From a virus (Duplodnaviria > Heunggongvirae > Uroviricota > Caudoviricetes), in the IMG/VR virus record IMGVR_UViG_2541047823_000003: a stretch of 32,947 nucleotides of DNA; one strand, written 5' to 3'. The translations under genes were made by a program, and so were the position numbers. Positions 17,899 through 25,448 of this stretch are shown here, piece after piece (position 1 is the stretch's first letter; every line of letters starts with the position of its first letter). The notes beneath the pieces were generated by a model. It did no database searches, had not been told where the DNA came from, and worked only from the letters and a program-made list of their open reading frames with translations.

Positions 17899-19493
17899 CA
17901 GAATCCCTCCAGCATACGGGCCGCCTGACGACGACGGCGTGAGCTTGCCTTCACCGGCCCTTTGTTAATTTCACGGCTGGCGAAATACGCCAGCGCCAGT
18001 GCGATGGCTGAATCCCCGTGGCGTTTACCACCGTCAGCCTTTGCTTTTGAGCGTTGCTCCGGTACGCGGGGGACACCGTTCACCACCTGAACGGCCCGCA
18101 GGTCATCCAGTGTGTCTTCATCCTTTGGTAAGTCCACCAGGTTACCGTCTTCCAGTGCAGCTTTGACCGGAGGCATATGCTCCCGGTACCAGCCTTCGGT
18201 TGGCATCACCTGCTGAACCCGGCTGGAGCCGTAGCGCTGCATGGCGTATTCAGCCAGATAGGCACCATTACCACGGGCATCAAACGCTGCACCCAGCAGA
18301 CCGGGCAGGCCATCCATCAGATACCAGGTGATTTGCTCCTGCTGTCTGAACGGCACGTTACGCAGCTCCAGTACGAATGGCACGCGTCGTACCAGGTTCT
18401 TCTCCTGCAGCAGGGGATAGTCCACCGACAAATCACCGCTACGGCCAAAGTCGCGCCCCAGGAAAGAGCGGGCATCAGTGGGGAGTGCCTCCAGCAAGGG
18501 TTTCAGATACTCATCAAGCCAGTCCTGCGTCTCGCGGAAGCGAACCTCATCAGACAGCAGTTCATAACCTTCCTTGCAGGTCAGACGCAATACCGGCGTA
18601 TCAGCGGACATGCGGGACTCTATCAGGGCACGGGACAGCCAGGCACCGCCACCGTTGGCCGGAATACAGTCAAGCTCTTCGGATGCGCCGGCACCGTAGA
18701 ATTTGTACACCGATGCCATCCAGGCCTGCTCGGATGCCTCCGACCATTCCTTCCCGGTGCGCAGACAGACGCGCCGGAACAGCCCCTCAGATACGGCTTC
18801 CCGGAAAGTGATGCGATGTATGCTGCCTCCCTGACGTCCGGCACGGATATCCCCGATAAGCGTATTGAACGGATTGTCGTCACCGTCATGGGTGGAGATA
18901 ACGCGTACCTTTCCCCCCCAGATAAGCATCGCCAGCGCCGCTTTCAGCAGTTCGTCCAGTTGCTCATGGAACGCCGCTTCGTCGATAACAATAATACCCT
19001 GACGGCCACGCAGGTTAGACGGGCGGCTGGAGAGCGCAACAATACGAAAGCCGGAGTCAGGAAATTTGATGGTGTAAGTCTTGATGTGTTTGTCGTCGTC
19101 GTCCTCTTCCCAGAATCCTTCTTCAATTTCACTGGCCGCATAGTTGAATGCCCGTGCCCACATCGCACACGCCTGAATGTATTCGACGGTCATGTCCTGG
19201 TTATAAGCGATGTAATACACATTCATCCCGCCTGCTGGCGCAGAAGAGGCGGCGGTCAGTACGTTATCGGATGCCTCAGCCCATGTAATACCGGTACGAC
19301 GGCTCTTTTCTATCACCTTAAGCGGAGAGGTGTCTGCCACCCAGCGCTGCTGGTAAGGCAACAGAACGGGAGGGGCATCCAGCGCCGAGGTATCAGGCAA
19401 AACGGGAGCAAGGTTATTCCTCCCGTCCATGGGACTCATCCCTTCGGGGCCGCCGCCAGCGGCGTTTAAAATCACTCCGGATGATTTTGTCAT
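17898..19493 (-). CDS. Terminase large subunit (Mu gp28-like)
   Basis: 531-aa ORF preceding the portal gene, following the small subunit-like gene; start may be one of the downstream Met codons. Confidence 0.8.
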   Translation of the reverse strand: MTKSSGVILNAAGGGPEGMSPMDGRNNLAPVLPDTSALDAPPVLLPYQQRWVADTSPLKVIEKSRRTGITWAEASDNVLTAASSAPAGGMNVYYIAYNQDMTVEYIQACAMWARAFNYAASEIEEGFWEEDDDDKHIKTYTIKFPDSGFRIVALSSRPSNLRGRQGIIVIDEAAFHEQLDELLKAALAMLIWGGKVRVISTHDGDDNPFNTLIGDIRAGRQGGSIHRITFREAVSEGLFRRVCLRTGKEWSEASEQAWMASVYKFYGAGASEELDCIPANGGGAWLSRALIESRMSADTPVLRLTCKEGYELLSDEVRFRETQDWLDEYLKPLLEALPTDARSFLGRDFGRSGDLSVDYPLLQEKNLVRRVPFVLELRNVPFRQQEQITWYLMDGLPGLLGAAFDARGNGAYLAEYAMQRYGSSRVQQVMPTEGWYREHMPPVKAALEDGNLVDLPKDEDTLDDLRAVQVVNGVPRVPEQRSKAKADGGKRHGDSAIALALAYFASREINKGPVKASSRRRRQAARMLEGF

Positions 19494-19585
19494 GTGGCAA
19501 TCCCCAGAATCTCGCGACGAAGCGCCTGTACTGCGTCGCTTGACAGTCCCCCCTTACGGGCAATTTTCTCGGCGTTGCTGGCTGC

Positions 19586-20035
19586 CTACTGCGCTCTGGC
19601 CCGTACTTCAGACTGGAACTTTTTGAGGTTGACGGACGCGCGGGACAGCGTAGCCACATTCTTCGCCACCTTCGACAGCAGGGCCACGCGTTCTTTAGGA
19701 TCGACTTCGCCTTCTTCCGCCTCCTGCAACTGGACAATACTCTCGAACAGCTCGGTCTGAATAAGGGCTATCACAGCCTCCGAACGCGCATCCTGATCGT
19801 CTGCTGCGCCTTCGGTCAGCATGCGGGCCGCTTCTGTTGCCGCACGGATAGCACCATAGCGGCGCTCAATCTTCTGTCCATAGCGATGGATAGCGGATTT
19901 GCTGATGACGTACCCCCGCTCACGCAGCAGGGACTCCAGCTCGTTATACCCGCTGAAGCCGGATTCAGTCAGCGCCCGTTCAAGCCAGCGGCGCACGTCT
20001 TCCGGCAGCTTTTCTATTGTGCTGCGTCTGGCCAT
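19586..20035 (-). CDS. Terminase small subunit-like DNA-binding protein (Mu gp27-like)
   Basis: 149-aa ORF immediately upstream of the large terminase; basic N-terminus and acidic C-terminus. Confidence 0.55.
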   Translation of the reverse strand: MARRSTIEKLPEDVRRWLERALTESGFSGYNELESLLRERGYVISKSAIHRYGQKIERRYGAIRAATEAARMLTEGAADDQDARSEAVIALIQTELFESIVQLQEAEEGEVDPKERVALLSKVAKNVATLSRASVNLKKFQSEVRARAQ

Positions 20036-22396: not shown

Positions 22397-22526
22397 GTGT
22401 GTCTCCTCGTTTGGTGGAGACAGCATCACAAATACAGGGCGCAAAGGATTTTAAAGCGCGTTAAGAGAGCCGGGGATACGGGATGTGCAGGATAAACGAT
22501 GAATTATTCACAGAGGAGAATACGAT

Positions 22527-23003
22527 ATGACGCACACACTGAATCCGGTCATCACTGTCACTGTGTCCGGTCCTGTGGGCAGCGGTAAAAGTTACGTACT
22601 GGCGCGGATAGAAGAGATGGTGAAACAGGAACTCGGAAACAGCGTCATTGTCGATGCTGCTGACGTGGAGAATGAGCGCCGTATGAATGGCGAAGATCTG
22701 ACGACCTGGCAGAAGCCACGGGGTGGCACAGTGATCAGGCTAGAGGAATACACGGGACAGGGCCTGTTGTCATACGGCGAGGAGCGTATCTGTCGGACGA
22801 ATGAGCTGCTGGATGTTATATGCCCCACGGGCCGGCAACCCTGGATACTGCCCGATGCACTGCATGCCACCATTGCGGCACTGATGACAGTTTACGATCA
22901 GGAGCTGCTCATGAAGGAGTTACGTAAACTCACCGGTCAGCCAACAGAATGTTGTTCGTCTCCGAAGTACGGCAAACAGGAAAACGCCCCGGATAATCCT
23001 TAA
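22527..23003 (+). CDS. Small P-loop NTPase/kinase-like protein, function unknown
   Basis: 158-aa ORF with GAGGAG RBS 7 nt upstream; Walker A at the N-terminus (VTVSGPVGSGKSYV) and a Walker B-like hhhhD (SVIVDAAD); plus strand, divergent from the late operon and convergent with the immunity-region operon. Confidence 0.6.
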   Translation: MTHTLNPVITVTVSGPVGSGKSYVLARIEEMVKQELGNSVIVDAADVENERRMNGEDLTTWQKPRGGTVIRLEEYTGQGLLSYGEERICRTNELLDVICPTGRQPWILPDALHATIAALMTVYDQELLMKELRKLTGQPTECCSSPKYGKQENAPDNP

Positions 23004-23015
23004 GATACCTCCTGA

Positions 23016-23038
23016 ACAGAAACAGCCCTGAAGGGCTG
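23016..23038 (-). terminator. Intrinsic terminator-like hairpin between the convergent genes
   Basis: CAGCCC-tgaa-GGGCTG at 23023-23038; on the minus strand it is followed by TTTCTGTT; sits directly after the stop of the glycine-zipper gene (23041) and 20 nt after the P-loop gene stop. Confidence 0.5.
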
Positions 23039-23040
23039 CA

Positions 23041-23424
23041 CTAAAAAAAGAAGTGTATTATTGCCCAAACAGCTATAACGATGATTCCCAGCCCAAGAGC
23101 CGATTCTAACTTATCTTTGGCAGTCATTTTTACTGTTGTAGCGGGCGCAGGTAAGTCTTGCTGCTGTGGATTTTCTGTTAGTTGTTTACGAGAAGAAACA
23201 TCGCCCCTATTAGTTTGCTTCATGTTGATTACAGATGCGTTATGGGCATTATCAGCAGCAATTGACTGAAGTTTTACAAAAGTTTTTGAATCTGTTTTAG
23301 CCAGAAGTAACCTATTTCCCGTAAACATTGCCTTAAAAGTGATAGTTTTTTTCGTCTTGTCCGCCGCACCAAGCAAACCTCCAATGACCAACCCTGCACC
23401 ACCAAAGATTAATCCACCAAGCAA
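23041..23424 (-). CDS. Glycine-zipper two-helix membrane protein (ORF as called from a TTG; reading frame continues upstream to ATG 23628 across an in-frame TGA)
   Basis: 127 aa; N-terminal glycine zipper (LGGLIFGGAGLVIGGLLGAA) and C-terminal hydrophobic helix (LGLGIIVIAVWAIIHFFF); the called start is TTG inside the zipper helix; upstream in the same frame lie a TGA (23506-23508) and a 40-codon ORF with AGGTGA RBS and ATG at 23626-23628; AT-rich. Confidence 0.5.
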   Translation of the reverse strand: MLGGLIFGGAGLVIGGLLGAADKTKKTITFKAMFTGNRLLLAKTDSKTFVKLQSIAADNAHNASVINMKQTNRGDVSSRKQLTENPQQQDLPAPATTVKMTAKDKLESALGLGIIVIAVWAIIHFFF

Positions 23425-23712
23425 ACCTGCGCCTGCCGCCTTACCTATACGGCTTTCCTCTTCACTATCCGCAAGTTCAATCGATAAAAGCTCTTCTTTC
23501 AGATTTCATACAATATTTTCAGGAAAGCCTTGTTTTGGTTTTTTGGCAAACACGATGGTACCGAACCCCATGCTTGCCCACCCTTTAGGAAAACTTCCTG
23601 CGATAACCTGAATCCCTGCCATGTTCATCACCTTTTACATTAAAATTTCAGAACGCAGCATGATGCCGCCTTTGTCTTTTTTCTGATCCCATGGTAATTC
23701 AGCTGTTATTTT

Positions 23713-24699
23713 CTATTTAAGAATAAAACGGTATTTACTGTCAGGAGTGCTTTGCTGATCAAGTAGCAGTGAACGACATGGAGCAGTCAAAACCCGAGCA
23801 TAACTACCATCAGGGCTTATGTTAATGTAACAAACCTTGCCCTTAACACTATAATTTTCGGGGACGGATGCCTTTGCTGATACAGTAAATTTAAGGGTAT
23901 GCCAGCCCGTTTTTTGCTTGTAGCTTGAAACCGAATGGAAATCATCTGAGTACTTATTTAACCCTGGAAACATGCTGCGCAGTGCGGGGATGGAATCTTC
24001 TATTATTTTATCGTTGGTTTTAATGTTAAAAACGCTGGTTTCAGTAGAAGCTACTGCTTTGGCATTTCCCCATTTACCAGCGAACACAATCATTCCCACG
24101 AAAAATATTGCTACAAGAACTAACACTCCCCCCAACACTACTACATGAGGCTTCCGGCTTCTGGTTGGTACAGTTGCGACTGATTTTGCACCGCTTTCCG
24201 ATGGAGGTGATAGAGTTTTACTCTCATCACGAATATTCAGCAGATCATCAAAATAACCAAACACAGCCTGCAACTGCTCTTTGTCTAGGCCTTTAAGATG
24301 GGTTGTACCGAAATGCTTCAGACAGTATCTGTCACGGTCAAGACGATACCCAGGGTCAGTAAGCGCCATTATTTTGCTGACCAGAAGATTACAGTCCTTC
24401 ATATTCTGGATCTGTTGTGCATATCTCTGAAGGATCTCAACCGCACCATGATAATCAGCCGCAGTCATTTCATTAACTGTTTTGGTATTAAGTTTCGTGT
24501 GGATCGTCATCCATAGCTCGCGCTTACTTTCCCCCAGATCAACCAATTCATCCATCAATCTGTGTAAATCGCGTTTTTGCAGCAACGAAATTGGTTGCTG
24601 GGCCGAAGGAAGTATGTCAGCAGAATAGTTATGAATGGTAACATCACCGCTGACAACGTTACCCACATCCCCGTTAACTGTTTGCTTCTCTTTACTCAT
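23713..24699 (-). CDS. Repressor-coupled single-pass membrane protein, function unknown
   Basis: 328-aa ORF whose ATG overlaps the repressor stop (ATGA, 24696-24699); cytoplasmic N-domain of about 185 aa, one TM helix (HVVVLGGVLVLVAIFFVGMIVFAGKW), C-terminal domain of about 120 aa with two Cys; AT-rich (sampled 60-nt lines give 33-48 percent GC). Confidence 0.6.
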   Translation of the reverse strand: MSKEKQTVNGDVGNVVSGDVTIHNYSADILPSAQQPISLLQKRDLHRLMDELVDLGESKRELWMTIHTKLNTKTVNEMTAADYHGAVEILQRYAQQIQNMKDCNLLVSKIMALTDPGYRLDRDRYCLKHFGTTHLKGLDKEQLQAVFGYFDDLLNIRDESKTLSPPSESGAKSVATVPTRSRKPHVVVLGGVLVLVAIFFVGMIVFAGKWGNAKAVASTETSVFNIKTNDKIIEDSIPALRSMFPGLNKYSDDFHSVSSYKQKTGWHTLKFTVSAKASVPENYSVKGKVCYINISPDGSYARVLTAPCRSLLLDQQSTPDSKYRFILK

Positions 24700-25157
24700 C
24701 TTCTCTTGGTATTTTTGTTCATTATTCCACCTGTTCCTATGGTTACGTTACCTTTGATAACATTCCCCAGAACATCTCCATGAATAACCTGTTCCGCCCG
24801 TTCTCTGGAGGAGCCAGTAGTCAAGGCCGACAAAACTGAACCTTTGACCTGTAATGGTGCCTGCCGGTAGTGCTGCAGTAACTCCATTTCATCACGTGAT
24901 AAAGTTATACCTGATGACTCCCCGGTAAGAATGAACTGTACATTGGCCCCAATTCTTGCAAAGGCTGCAAGTAACTCACCTCCGGGAACAGCAACCCCTC
25001 GTTCATATTTCCCCCACATTTCTCTTGAAACGCCACAAAGGGCTGCTACTTCAGCCTGCTTGAGTGATAACCGCGAACGCTCAGCTTTGAACCGCGACGC
25101 GCAAAGAGAATCAAAATTCACATAAACCTCATTGACAATGAGAACAATAGTTCTCAT
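24696..25157 (-). CDS. XRE-family helix-turn-helix repressor (prophage immunity repressor candidate)
   Basis: 153-aa ORF divergent from the early operon; HTH (LSLKQAEVAALCGVSREMWGKYERGVAVPGGELLAAFARIGANVQFILTG); C-terminal tail HGDVLGNVIKGNVTIGTGG; start codon overlaps the -10 of the early promoter. Confidence 0.7.
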   Translation of the reverse strand: MRTIVLIVNEVYVNFDSLCASRFKAERSRLSLKQAEVAALCGVSREMWGKYERGVAVPGGELLAAFARIGANVQFILTGESSGITLSRDEMELLQHYRQAPLQVKGSVLSALTTGSSRERAEQVIHGDVLGNVIKGNVTIGTGGIMNKNTKRR

Positions 25158-25160
25158 AAT
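25132..25160 (+). promoter_or_regulatory. Early promoter (sigma70-like) with a 16-bp palindromic operator candidate in the spacer
   Basis: TTGACA at 25132-25137, 17-bp spacer, CATAAT at 25155-25160; spacer holds the perfect inverted repeat GAGAACaataGTTCTC (25140-25155); 48 nt upstream of the Ner-like gene ATG with AGGAG RBS. Confidence 0.5.
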
Positions 25161-25207
25161 CTATCACATATAAAACAAACATCATTGCATCAACAAAGGA
25201 GACAACA

Positions 25208-25396
25208 ATGACTTCCGAACAAGTTAAAAATCTCTTCCGTCAGCGTGGTATCACGTTTACCCGCTGGGCCGAAGAACACGGCTACAGCCGCAATGAGGTC
25301 TATCGTGTTCTCAATGGACAGACCAAAGCTCGTTACGGCAAAGCCCATGAAATTGCCGTAAAACTGGGATTAAAACCCACGTCAAATGCGGCATAA
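25208..25396 (+). CDS. Ner/Cro-like small DNA-binding protein
   Basis: 62-aa ORF with strong RBS (aaaggagacaacaATG), first gene of the early operon divergent from the repressor; sequence pattern resembles Mu Ner-type HTH proteins. Confidence 0.55.
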   Translation: MTSEQVKNLFRQRGITFTRWAEEHGYSRNEVYRVLNGQTKARYGKAHEIAVKLGLKPTSNAA

Positions 25397-25448
25397 ATTT
25401 TCCACATATGCAACAGGTTATCACATATTGCAAAAATGGAAATGTGAC

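Follow-up and report, generated by a model that had tools for sequence, protein, structure and literature searches.

What takes a prophage out of lysogeny when its repressor has no LexA-type autoprotease domain, and what is the role of a membrane protein whose gene overlaps that of such a repressor? These questions are raised by the immunity region of a 32,947-nucleotide stretch of viral DNA (IMG/VR virus record IMGVR_UViG_2541047823_000003, the whole of which is called the window in this text), which is a BcepMu-type transposable (Mu-type) prophage of Escherichia coli. Three minus-strand genes follow each other there: an XRE-family repressor, a 328-amino-acid (aa) single-pass membrane protein and a glycine-zipper membrane protein, closed by a hairpin terminator. 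A preliminary description of the locus, made from the sequence alone, compared this arrangement with lambda cI-rexA-rexB. It took the two membrane proteins for a sensor/effector pair acquired as an AT-rich moron and serving to exclude or abort superinfecting phage, and named a membrane-tethered sensor that modulates the repressor as an alternative. The three open reading frames (ORFs), the ATGA overlap, the AGGTGA site and the terminator are all present as described there, and the view that they constitute one immunity-region operon running from the repressor to the terminator is upheld by the gene layout and by the single terminator-like site. With respect to function, it is the alternative that the evidence favours: our findings point to a hitherto undescribed membrane-linked control of the lysogeny switch, and not to Rex-like exclusion. 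They start from a short sequence tag that the repressor shares with the protein encoded next to it. The four features concerned are:

24696..25157, minus strand: XRE-family prophage repressor (Pfam HTH_31 and HTH_3; PHROG transcriptional regulator families; homologue starts)
24738..24800, minus strand: C-terminal tag of the repressor, residues 120-140, RAEQVIHGDVLGNVIKGNVTI (from the alignment to the N-terminus of the 328-aa protein)
23713..24699, minus strand: 328-aa bitopic inner-membrane protein, the partner of the repressor (phrog_10002; AlphaFold2 (AF2) model; ATGA overlap)
24634..24693, minus strand: N-terminal tag of the 328-aa protein, residues 3-22, KEKQTVNGDVGNVVSGDVTI (matches the repressor tail)

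The C-terminal tail of the repressor (VIHGDVLGNVIKGNVTI) resembles the first residues of the 328-aa partner (VNGDVGNVVSGDVTI). Smith-Waterman alignment of repressor residues 120-140 with partner residues 3-22 gave a score of 55 (z=7.5), which was reached by 0 of 5000 shuffles, and none of the other ORFs of the window carries the tag at the score threshold of 38. In the repressor the tag is followed by a basic end, NKNTKRR, and the tail is conserved across the repressors of Yersinia, Serratia and Salmonella. On the partner side G10, G13-G18 and V20-I22 are nearly invariant across the family.

Using four sub-alignments, we gathered about 110 loci encoding Flk_N-like proteins, i.e. proteins that share the cytoplasmic domain of the 328-aa protein (see below), from viral and genome contigs. 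Nearly all of these loci have an XRE repressor directly upstream, the tail of which resembles the N-terminus of the membrane protein, and 60 of the 72 distinct repressor/partner pairs overlap or are separated by no more than 20 nt. Four of the pairs are given here:

L008: repressor tail GVGQQFNGPVGSVATGDVVNHG, partner N-terminus MSSQQFHERVDQVAAGDIKNF
L072: repressor tail KQTFHGSVGQSVAGNVTNKSGVTFNVG, partner N-terminus MSQDFHGDVGQAAAGDINNYGVSISL
L105: repressor tail SQIFNGDISGQFAGNQIINNG, partner N-terminus MRQEFNGTAQGQFSSRDIINI
L016: repressor tail VTVSGSNNRAAGRDYHEKE, partner N-terminus VGDIDVEGSKNRVAGRDYIEL

The tags were assigned to two classes. Class F, which includes the tag of the window, is rich in G, V, Q and N, and has a median aligned length of 18 residues (about 27 in some loci), class R is rich in R, D and E and is defined by the motif NR.AGRDY, in its fuller form G..NR.AGRDY.E. 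The motif class of the repressor tail was the same as the class of the neighbouring N-terminus in 62 of 63 non-redundant loci (38 F-class, 24 R-class), and in the sole discordant locus the repressor tail looks frameshifted. The mean alignment score was 48.4 for cognate and 30.3 for non-cognate pairs, and cognate pairs scored higher within the classes, too, with permutation p values (5e-5 for F, 8.5e-4 for R) that overstate independence because the loci are phylogenetically related. Stronger and independent support comes from class switches that affect both partners at once within close clades, seen in about three Flk_N clades and in the enterobacterial repressors. The Flk_N domain of the R-class locus L010 is 72% identical to that of the F-class locus L008, and the R-class loci L094, L095 and L098 are about 63% identical to the F-class loci L079 and L099. 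Enterobacterial repressors with a near-identical helix-turn-helix (HTH) domain have tails of three types (the window type, a QIFNGD type and R-class), and cognate partners were seen for all three. The covariation of the tags is a new and, as a comparative result, well-supported observation.

The two copies of the tag agree in 50% of the aligned residues and in 36% of the third codon positions, and identical residues are encoded by the same codon in 40% of the cases. As codon agreement is low compared with residue agreement, the resemblance is maintained at the level of protein, not of DNA. Escherichia prophages have two or more tag types, Pseudomonas-type prophages several. The possibility that the tag is a recognition signal for a shared host factor or a degron was also considered; it is disfavoured by the presence of more than one tag type in prophages of one host genus, and was rejected since the tags covary with the partner.

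These operons contain nine more ORFs for small membrane proteins (127-152 aa, one of them with a CxxC zinc-ribbon-like segment), and each begins with a tag of the class found in its locus. The repressor of a Pseudomonas carbonaria prophage (L010, 2935-3984) has two copies of the R-class tag with a P/G-rich linker between them, and is followed by two tagged membrane proteins, one with a CxxC...CxxC pattern and without the Flk_N domain, the other Flk_N-like. In L077 (3601-4850), and also in L069-L086, the Flk_N-like gene is followed by a gene for a lipoprotein consisting of the periplasmic domain described below, and then by one or two genes for two-helix membrane proteins of 127-144 aa. The two-helix membrane proteins of the Pseudomonas-type loci start with the same tag, e.g. 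MNQQFYGNVGQAAAGDIYNY.

The ATG of the gene for the 328-aa protein overlaps the stop codon of the repressor as ATGA. The protein matches phrog_10002 over its full length (E=8e-228), and its homologues form 24 clusters among 5.8 billion proteins, all of them from Enterobacterales. From N- to C-terminus it is composed of the tag, a Flk_N-like cytoplasmic domain, a transmembrane helix and a periplasmic domain:

24259..24645, minus strand: Flk_N-like cytoplasmic helical domain, residues 19-147 (NCBIfam NF007987; Pfam PF27202 on homologues; AF2)
24076..24144, minus strand: single transmembrane helix, residues 186-208, VVVLGGVLVLVAIFFVGMIVFAG (hydrophobic stretch preceded by RSRKPH; AF2 helix 190-205)
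23716..24027, minus strand: periplasmic alpha/beta domain, residues 225-328 (predicted local distance difference test score (pLDDT) of the AF2 model >90; homologous to stand-alone lipoproteins)

The AF2 model (pLDDT 76) has two confident domains. Its parts are a disordered segment (residues 1-29), a helical domain (30-161, with pLDDT >85 for the helices of 31-161), a linker, the membrane helix and the alpha/beta domain (225-328). The profile search that had been proposed as a check of the exclusion hypothesis did not lead to a Rex-like exclusion family, it uncovered a resemblance to the N-domain of Flk. Residues 19-147 match the NCBIfam Flk model NF007987 with E=2.9e-12 and 46.6 bits (equivalog cut-off 353), Pfam PF27202 (Flk_N) is precomputed on homologues, and Flk-type proteins are recovered by the profile of the 328-aa family. 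Three Flk-type matches (P0135, P0141 and P0144) are 343-427 aa long and contain more than one Flk_N unit each, and one of them, P0141, reaches the equivalog cut-off with 427.8 bits; the 328-aa protein has a single unit. Because the domain homology is present and the score is far under the equivalog cut-off, we consider the 328-aa protein to be related to the N-domain of Flk without being a Flk itself. A Flk-type tail anchor leaves almost no periplasmic part, whereas here the transmembrane helix is followed by a folded domain of 104 residues. Scans of all ORFs of the region with Pfam, PHROG and PADLOC yielded only unnamed PHROGs for the membrane proteins and no informative family. For the membrane proteins PADLOC gave nothing better than E=0.014, there was no defence family in Pfam or PHROGs, and a Foldseek search against viral structures gave no match at E <=0.001. 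The earlier remark that the membrane proteins bear no recognisable resemblance to Rex, Sie or other named exclusion proteins was borne out by PADLOC and Pfam, which detected no homology to defence proteins.

In an exhaustive profile search of 1.84 billion representatives the 328-aa protein split into two modules, of which the N-terminal one recurs in tail-anchored proteins of about 200 aa in other prophages, and the C-terminal one in small lipoproteins with a lipobox. A Pfam library without PF27202 and PF27000 assigned no family to these lipoproteins, to Flk or to the relatives of about 200 aa. The C-terminal domain contains two conserved cysteines, C290 and C308. These cysteines and the lipoprotein relatives indicate that this domain is periplasmic and the Flk_N-like domain cytoplasmic. 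The periplasmic domain is fused to the Flk_N-like part in Enterobacterales, and in at least 16 Pseudomonas-type loci the gene that immediately follows the Flk_N-like one encodes it as a separate lipoprotein, a pattern of fusion and fission from which it follows that the cytoplasmic and the periplasmic parts are functionally tied. In two Serratia loci (L035/L036) the domain is present twice, fused to the Flk_N-like protein and as a separate downstream ORF (3001-3975 and 4135-4662).

On the other side of the pair stands the repressor, with two further features:

24954..25094, minus strand: helix-turn-helix DNA-binding domain, repressor residues 22-68 (Pfam HTH_31/HTH_3 envelope)
25131..25164, no strand: inverted repeat I1, candidate operator (15-nt arms, 80% complementary; overlaps the early promoter-like site)

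The repressor is at or above the Pfam cut-offs of both HTH_31 (E=4.7e-7, 30.5 bits, cut-off 27) and HTH_3 (23 bits, cut-off 23). There is also a weak match between its HTH and the NCBIfam RstR subfamily (E=1.5e-6, 28 bits, cut-off 80). No Peptidase_S24 (LexA-like autoprotease) domain was found in it by the Pfam scan. A repressor with a related HTH (P0203, L122) does have an S24 peptidase C-domain, located at the position that is occupied here by the tag tail. Neither this repressor nor a tail-less one (P0194, L120) is accompanied by a Flk_N-like gene.

The repressor was annotated as a 153-aa protein starting from ATG 25157. Its homologues begin with MNFDSL at the position of GTG 25121, and ATG 25157 sits within a promoter-like site and the inverted repeat, therefore the true start is probably GTG 25121 (141 aa), and the RefSeq start would be 12 codons too far upstream. 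The promoter-like site, TTGACA-17-CATAAT (25132-25160, plus strand), is divergent from the repressor, matches at 11 of 12 positions and contains the annotated ATG 25157. On this side the repressor is divergent from the ner-like gene (25208-25396, plus strand) and from the IclR-HTH, DUF3102 and transposase genes. The repeat at 25131-25164 is a candidate operator at the promoter-like site that presumably drives the ner-like/transposase operon, and with it the repressor has, as far as can be read from the sequence, a divergent early operon and an operator-like repeat.

How does the third gene fit in? In BcepMu-like prophages of Yersinia, Serratia and Salmonella the repressor overlaps a gene for 325-327 aa exactly as in the window, and the third slot is occupied by a 249-aa gene, by nothing or by an 89-aa gene. 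Citrobacter BcepMu-like prophages encode a 190-aa homologue of the glycine-zipper protein behind another repressor (121 aa, Phage_CI_repr), and have no Flk_N-like gene. Because the pair is conserved and the trio is not, the proposed sensor/effector pairing of the two membrane proteins is unsupported; conservation in related prophages, which had been suggested as a check, holds for the repressor and the 328-aa gene, and fails for the third gene. The features at this end of the operon are:

23041..23622, minus strand: third gene, putative PH_gly_zipper-family membrane protein (both halves match phrog_12025; GxxxG-rich zipper; intact in strain IAI39)
23506..23508, minus strand: in-frame TGA at codon 39 of the third gene (TTA, Leu, in IAI39; single-base difference at window position 23507)
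23022..23039, minus strand: intrinsic-terminator-like hairpin with T-run, closing the operon (the sole terminator-like site within 22400-25800)

The reading frame of the third gene was first described as 23041-23628 (minus strand). The RefSeq start is ATG 23622, located 5 nt after AGGTGA, and this is probably where the gene starts; the gap behind the 328-aa gene, in which the AGGTGA ribosome binding site had been reported, would then be 90 nt long instead of 84 bp. The frame encodes a GxxxG-rich zipper (residues 62-87), visible directly in the sequence, and a C-terminal hydrophobic helix. Pfam PF27000 (PH_gly_zipper) has weak precomputed matches on homologues, and a Pfam library without this model gave no family. 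The AF2 model of the intact protein was unusable (pLDDT 33). The gene is intact in IAI39 (193 aa, WP_000907412). The stretch 22900-25450 is carried by 97 of 5426 complete E. coli genomes, of which one (strain AR_0013) matches the window exactly, with 100% identity, and 96, IAI39 and CE10 among them, differ by one base. It is on the basis of this difference, and of the TTA at codon 39 in IAI39, that we regard the third gene as a strain-specific pseudogene in the window, intact elsewhere. The family is very narrow, it was found in Escherichia, Morganella and Citrobacter. Its independent distribution and the variability of the slot fit the notion that the third gene is an independent, variable cargo expressed in the lysogen, outside the repressor/partner module. 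For this gene taken alone, a role in exclusion would be plausible.

The idea of an acquired moron can thus be retained in part, for the third gene behaves as swappable cargo. The 328-aa gene is a different case, it is a Flk N-domain homologue linked to the repressor type by a covarying terminal motif. The low G+C content of the last two genes is real, it is not confined to them, though: the whole block 23001-26000, which extends from the third gene into the start of the IclR-type HTH gene and takes in the 328-aa gene, the repressor and the ner-like gene, has a G+C content of 42-47% compared with 54-60% in the rest of the prophage. Because the repressor and the whole immunity block are also AT-rich, we ruled out the AT-rich moron as an explanation for the 328-aa gene.

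The repressor/partner module was found in Escherichia, Salmonella, Yersinia, Serratia and Pseudomonas prophages belonging to at least two phage types, and it is probably present also in Pectobacterium and Dickeya, where only matching repressors were found. In E. coli P2/186-like prophages (L118/L119, 4001-6650), which have 186 Fil, a GPA replication protein and an integrase, the module is located between the early genes and int. It consists there of a repressor with an R-class tail, a 210-aa Flk_N protein and a 197-aa secreted protein, and the pair adjoins the integrase gene. The presence of the module in P2/186-like prophages shows that it moves between unrelated phage types. When three family members were compared by tblastn with 50,697 phage records, Escherichia phage 520873 was the single match.

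We propose, with about even confidence, that the membrane protein captures or otherwise controls the repressor through the matching tags, and thereby provides an envelope-linked input for a repressor that has no S24 domain, the third gene being separate cargo. This reading starts from the gene layout, the domain homologies, the predicted topology, the similarity and covariation of the tags and the fusion and fission of the periplasmic domain, and from these we infer a physical binding between tags, an effect on repressor activity, the direction of this effect and the nature of the signal as follows. The core would consist of an XRE repressor with a beta-prone C-terminal tag of about 20 residues, and of a bitopic inner-membrane partner, produced from the overlapping next gene, with a matching tag at its N-terminus. 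The tags would bind one another homotypically; this is suggested by the fact that several tag types each stay similar between neighbours without DNA identity, and that more than one type occurs per host genus. Through this contact the membrane protein would capture, sequester or otherwise control the repressor at the inner membrane, whether by inactivating, stabilising or positioning it, and the periplasmic domain would probably couple derepression of the ner/transposase operon to a signal from the envelope or the periplasm. The different tag types could then serve as orthogonal address codes between heteroimmune prophages, a notion favoured by the occurrence of more than one type in prophages of one host genus. 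A more specific version, which we consider rather unlikely, is that the tags are functional amyloid-like (beta-solenoid) motifs. In that case the membrane protein would gather into clusters on an envelope signal and nucleate a cross-beta template with its N-terminal tags, and repressor tails converted by this template would polymerise off the operators, resulting in a prion-like, all-or-none induction.

Several observations weigh against control of the repressor by capture, in addition to the relatedness of the loci mentioned with the permutation values. Two loci with a Flk_N-like gene (L039 and L096) have no tailed repressor directly upstream. In a Burkholderiaceae BcepMu-like prophage (L123/L124, 4001-5385) the repressor has a tag-like tail, GSIRIDGTVHGHVVQGDVVQHG, and the DUF4236 membrane protein encoded behind it lacks the tag. 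In the AF2 model of the monomer the N-terminal tag of the 328-aa protein is disordered (pLDDT 43-45). As the genes overlap, the two proteins are made together, and constitutive sequestration of the repressor would be self-defeating; any antagonism of the repressor must therefore be conditional. Finally, the membrane protein may have an additional role in exclusion or abortive infection, which would be compatible with the data.

A rival view is that the partner is a positive one, i.e. that the tagged membrane protein or proteins co-assemble with the repressor and stabilise it or place it where phage DNA enters, strengthening immunity and lysogeny. The covariation and the layout are the same evidence for this as for capture, stoichiometric co-expression from overlapping genes would suit a constitutive complex better than an inhibitor, and some loci have several tagged membrane proteins per operon. 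Nevertheless, the periplasmic domain with its fusion and fission suggests signal input and not a passive anchor, and a repressor with a related HTH has the S24 induction domain at the same C-terminal position. We think a positive partner rather unlikely, if worth keeping in mind. Rex-like exclusion or abortive infection, in which the membrane proteins would detect a superinfecting phage and respond by depolarising or blocking the membrane, and the tag would be incidental, is in our judgement quite unlikely. The location of the genes behind the repressor, with expression in the lysogen like that of lambda rexAB or P22 sieB, the membrane nature of the products, the third with its glycine zipper, and the variable cargo carried by the slot in related prophages are what one would look for in such a system. 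Against this stand the lack of a match to any PADLOC, Pfam or PHROG defence family, the failure of the two membrane proteins to co-occur as a pair, and the fact that the putative effector is a pseudogene in the window; moreover, the 328-aa gene tracks the type and the tail of the repressor, which an exclusion gene would have no reason to do.

The similarity of the tags could itself have arisen neutrally, through local duplication or through gene conversion involving two DNA segments some 100 bp from each other, without any functional interaction. The tag-coding segments are adjacent and hence always co-inherited, but linkage accounts for co-inheritance and not for resemblance. We rejected gene conversion on the codon statistics given above (50% agreement of residues, 36% of third codon positions, the same codon in 40%); there are five or more distinct tag types, each with its internal similarity kept, and genes up to about 1.4 kb downstream bear the same tag, so that a neutral origin seems very unlikely. 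The homology of the N-domain to Flk, a membrane-anchored protein that keeps flagellar export in early mode (PMC13344023), raises the further idea of a lysogenic conversion in which the protein acts on the flagellar type III export gate of the host and alters motility or flagellin expression. The score of 46.6 bits against a cut-off of 353 and the single domain, as opposed to the multi-unit Flk-type proteins, do not fit this idea, which leaves both the periplasmic domain and the tag held in common with the repressor unaccounted for, and we hold it to be very improbable.

The surroundings of the operon are those of a Bcepmuvirus-type prophage: early genes for a Mu-type transposase, an AAA+ protein (ExeA) and Gam are divergent from a late block with lysis, head and tail genes, and the immunity genes lie between them. 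IAI39 has a region near-identical to the window, with 4 base differences across 14.5 kb. In its RefSeq annotation the minus strand carries the late genes (holin, then SLT transglycosylase and on to the head genes) and the plus strand the early genes (ner-like, IclR-type HTH, DUF3102, transposase, ExeA-type AAA+ and Gam), and the operon studied here is placed between the late block on the minus and the early block on the plus strand. The nearest isolated phage is PhiKM, which is classified as Bcepmuvirus. In the same interval it has a Dam methylase gene and small ORFs in place of the three genes. A convergent P-loop ORF at 22527-23003 (plus strand; phrog_3787, labelled 'ABC transporter ATPase' in RefSeq) is 92% identical to a PhiKM protein over its first 157 residues and then ends, whereas the PhiKM protein has 242 aa. 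As the identity to PhiKM stops there, the end of the P-loop ORF marks the left edge of a swapped AT-rich immunity cassette. A Mu gp27-like DUF3486 gene (presumed small terminase subunit; 19490-20035, minus strand) has an in-frame stop at codon 149, and its IAI39 counterpart is annotated in RefSeq as a pseudogene with an internal stop. On account of this stop, the prophage of the window may be defective for packaging.

A LexA-type autoprotease domain is missing from the repressors of many temperate phages, Mu-like ones among them, and few cues are known by which such prophages exit lysogeny. For prophages whose repressor lacks S24, a repressor tail with the same address as membrane proteins of its own operon offers a concrete induction hypothesis, and a membrane-linked switch with interchangeable specificity tags is directly testable. 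The module is almost absent from isolated, studied phages (1 record among 50,697), and in the literature on tail-anchored or membrane antirepressors, on amyloid and prophage induction and on glycine-zipper exclusion we found no description of a repressor/membrane-protein tag pair. Should the tags be amyloid-like, amyloid signalling would extend from NOD-like receptor (NLR) immunity to viral gene regulation in unicellular bacteria, and it would be the first such pathway outside NLR immunity and outside multicellular bacteria, with a transcription factor as target. If they are not, the covarying tags still represent a natural set of orthogonal short interaction peptides.

It is instructive to compare the tag pairs with bacterial amyloid signalling sequences (BASS) and with the fungal HET-s/NWD2 system. 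In these, one protein ends, and the product of an adjacent, collinear and often overlapping gene begins, with a motif of about 25 residues; BASS motifs contain much Q, N, G, V and I and little K, P and L, and some have pseudorepeats on the C-terminal side (bioRxiv 10.1101/2020.01.06.895854). The layout with a motif at the facing termini of the products of adjacent collinear genes is shared (z=7.5 in the window, class agreement in 62/63 loci, overlap or close spacing in 60/72 pairs). The F-class tags, with their median aligned length of 18 residues, lean the same way in composition (G 16, N 10, Q 11, V 13, I 7, K 3.3, P 0.8 and L 3.1%), and the values for the rest of the same proteins are G 6, N 3, Q 7, V 7, I 4, K 5, P 2 and L 11%. 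The L010 repressor, with its two tag copies joined by a P/G-rich linker, recalls the BASS pairs in which the effector has pseudorepeats. The differences are equally clear. BASS and HET-s systems have a NB-ARC or NACHT receptor and a Bell or HeLo effector; neither was found here, where an HTH repressor and a Flk_N-like membrane protein take their place. The R-class tag is charged, unlike the known amyloid motifs, and amyloid formation by the tags is put forward here only as a hypothesis. BASS have been reported only in multicellular bacteria, and according to a 2026 review bacterial amyloid signalling is still confined to them (PMC13506858), whereas the hosts of the tag pairs are unicellular Proteobacteria.

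Flk (Fluke, RflH) of Salmonella and E. coli is cytoplasmic, anchored in the membrane by its C-terminus, and holds the flagellar export apparatus in early mode (PMC13344023). The 328-aa protein has in common with it the homologous helical cytoplasmic domain, the inner-membrane anchor and the cytoplasmic location of its bulk. It differs from Flk by having one Flk_N unit, an extra N-terminal tag and a periplasmic domain of 104 residues, and by being encoded by a prophage gene that overlaps a repressor gene.

With lambda cI-rexA-rexB and P22 sieB the operon shares the position behind the repressor, the orientation, the presumed lysogenic transcript and the membrane location of the products. There is no similarity in sequence or family, and here a covarying tag couples the first membrane protein to the repressor. 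Unlike lambda rexA and rexB, the genes for the two membrane proteins do not stay together as a pair.

Membrane-tethered control of transcription factors is known from the anti-sigma factor RseA, which acts on sigma-E, and from Mlc, which is held by PtsG. The 328-aa protein may follow the same logic of a bitopic protein with a cytoplasmic factor-binding part and a periplasmic part and of capture at the membrane, and the repressor and partner genes are adjacent and presumably co-transcribed, like rpoE and rseA. There is no homology to these systems, and in our case binding would occur via terminal tags, with a phage repressor as target. Among phage repressors, the CTX-phi repressor RstR is aggregated by RstC, and the C-terminal tail of the Mu repressor is the regulatory handle for ClpXP. 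No homology to RstC or to the Mu repressor was found. What may be shared with them is a regulatory handle outside the HTH domain, and, by analogy, inactivation of the repressor could take place either by aggregation or by action on its tail. RstC is, however, a soluble protein made on induction, whereas the protein proposed to act here is a membrane protein produced from the repressor's own operon.

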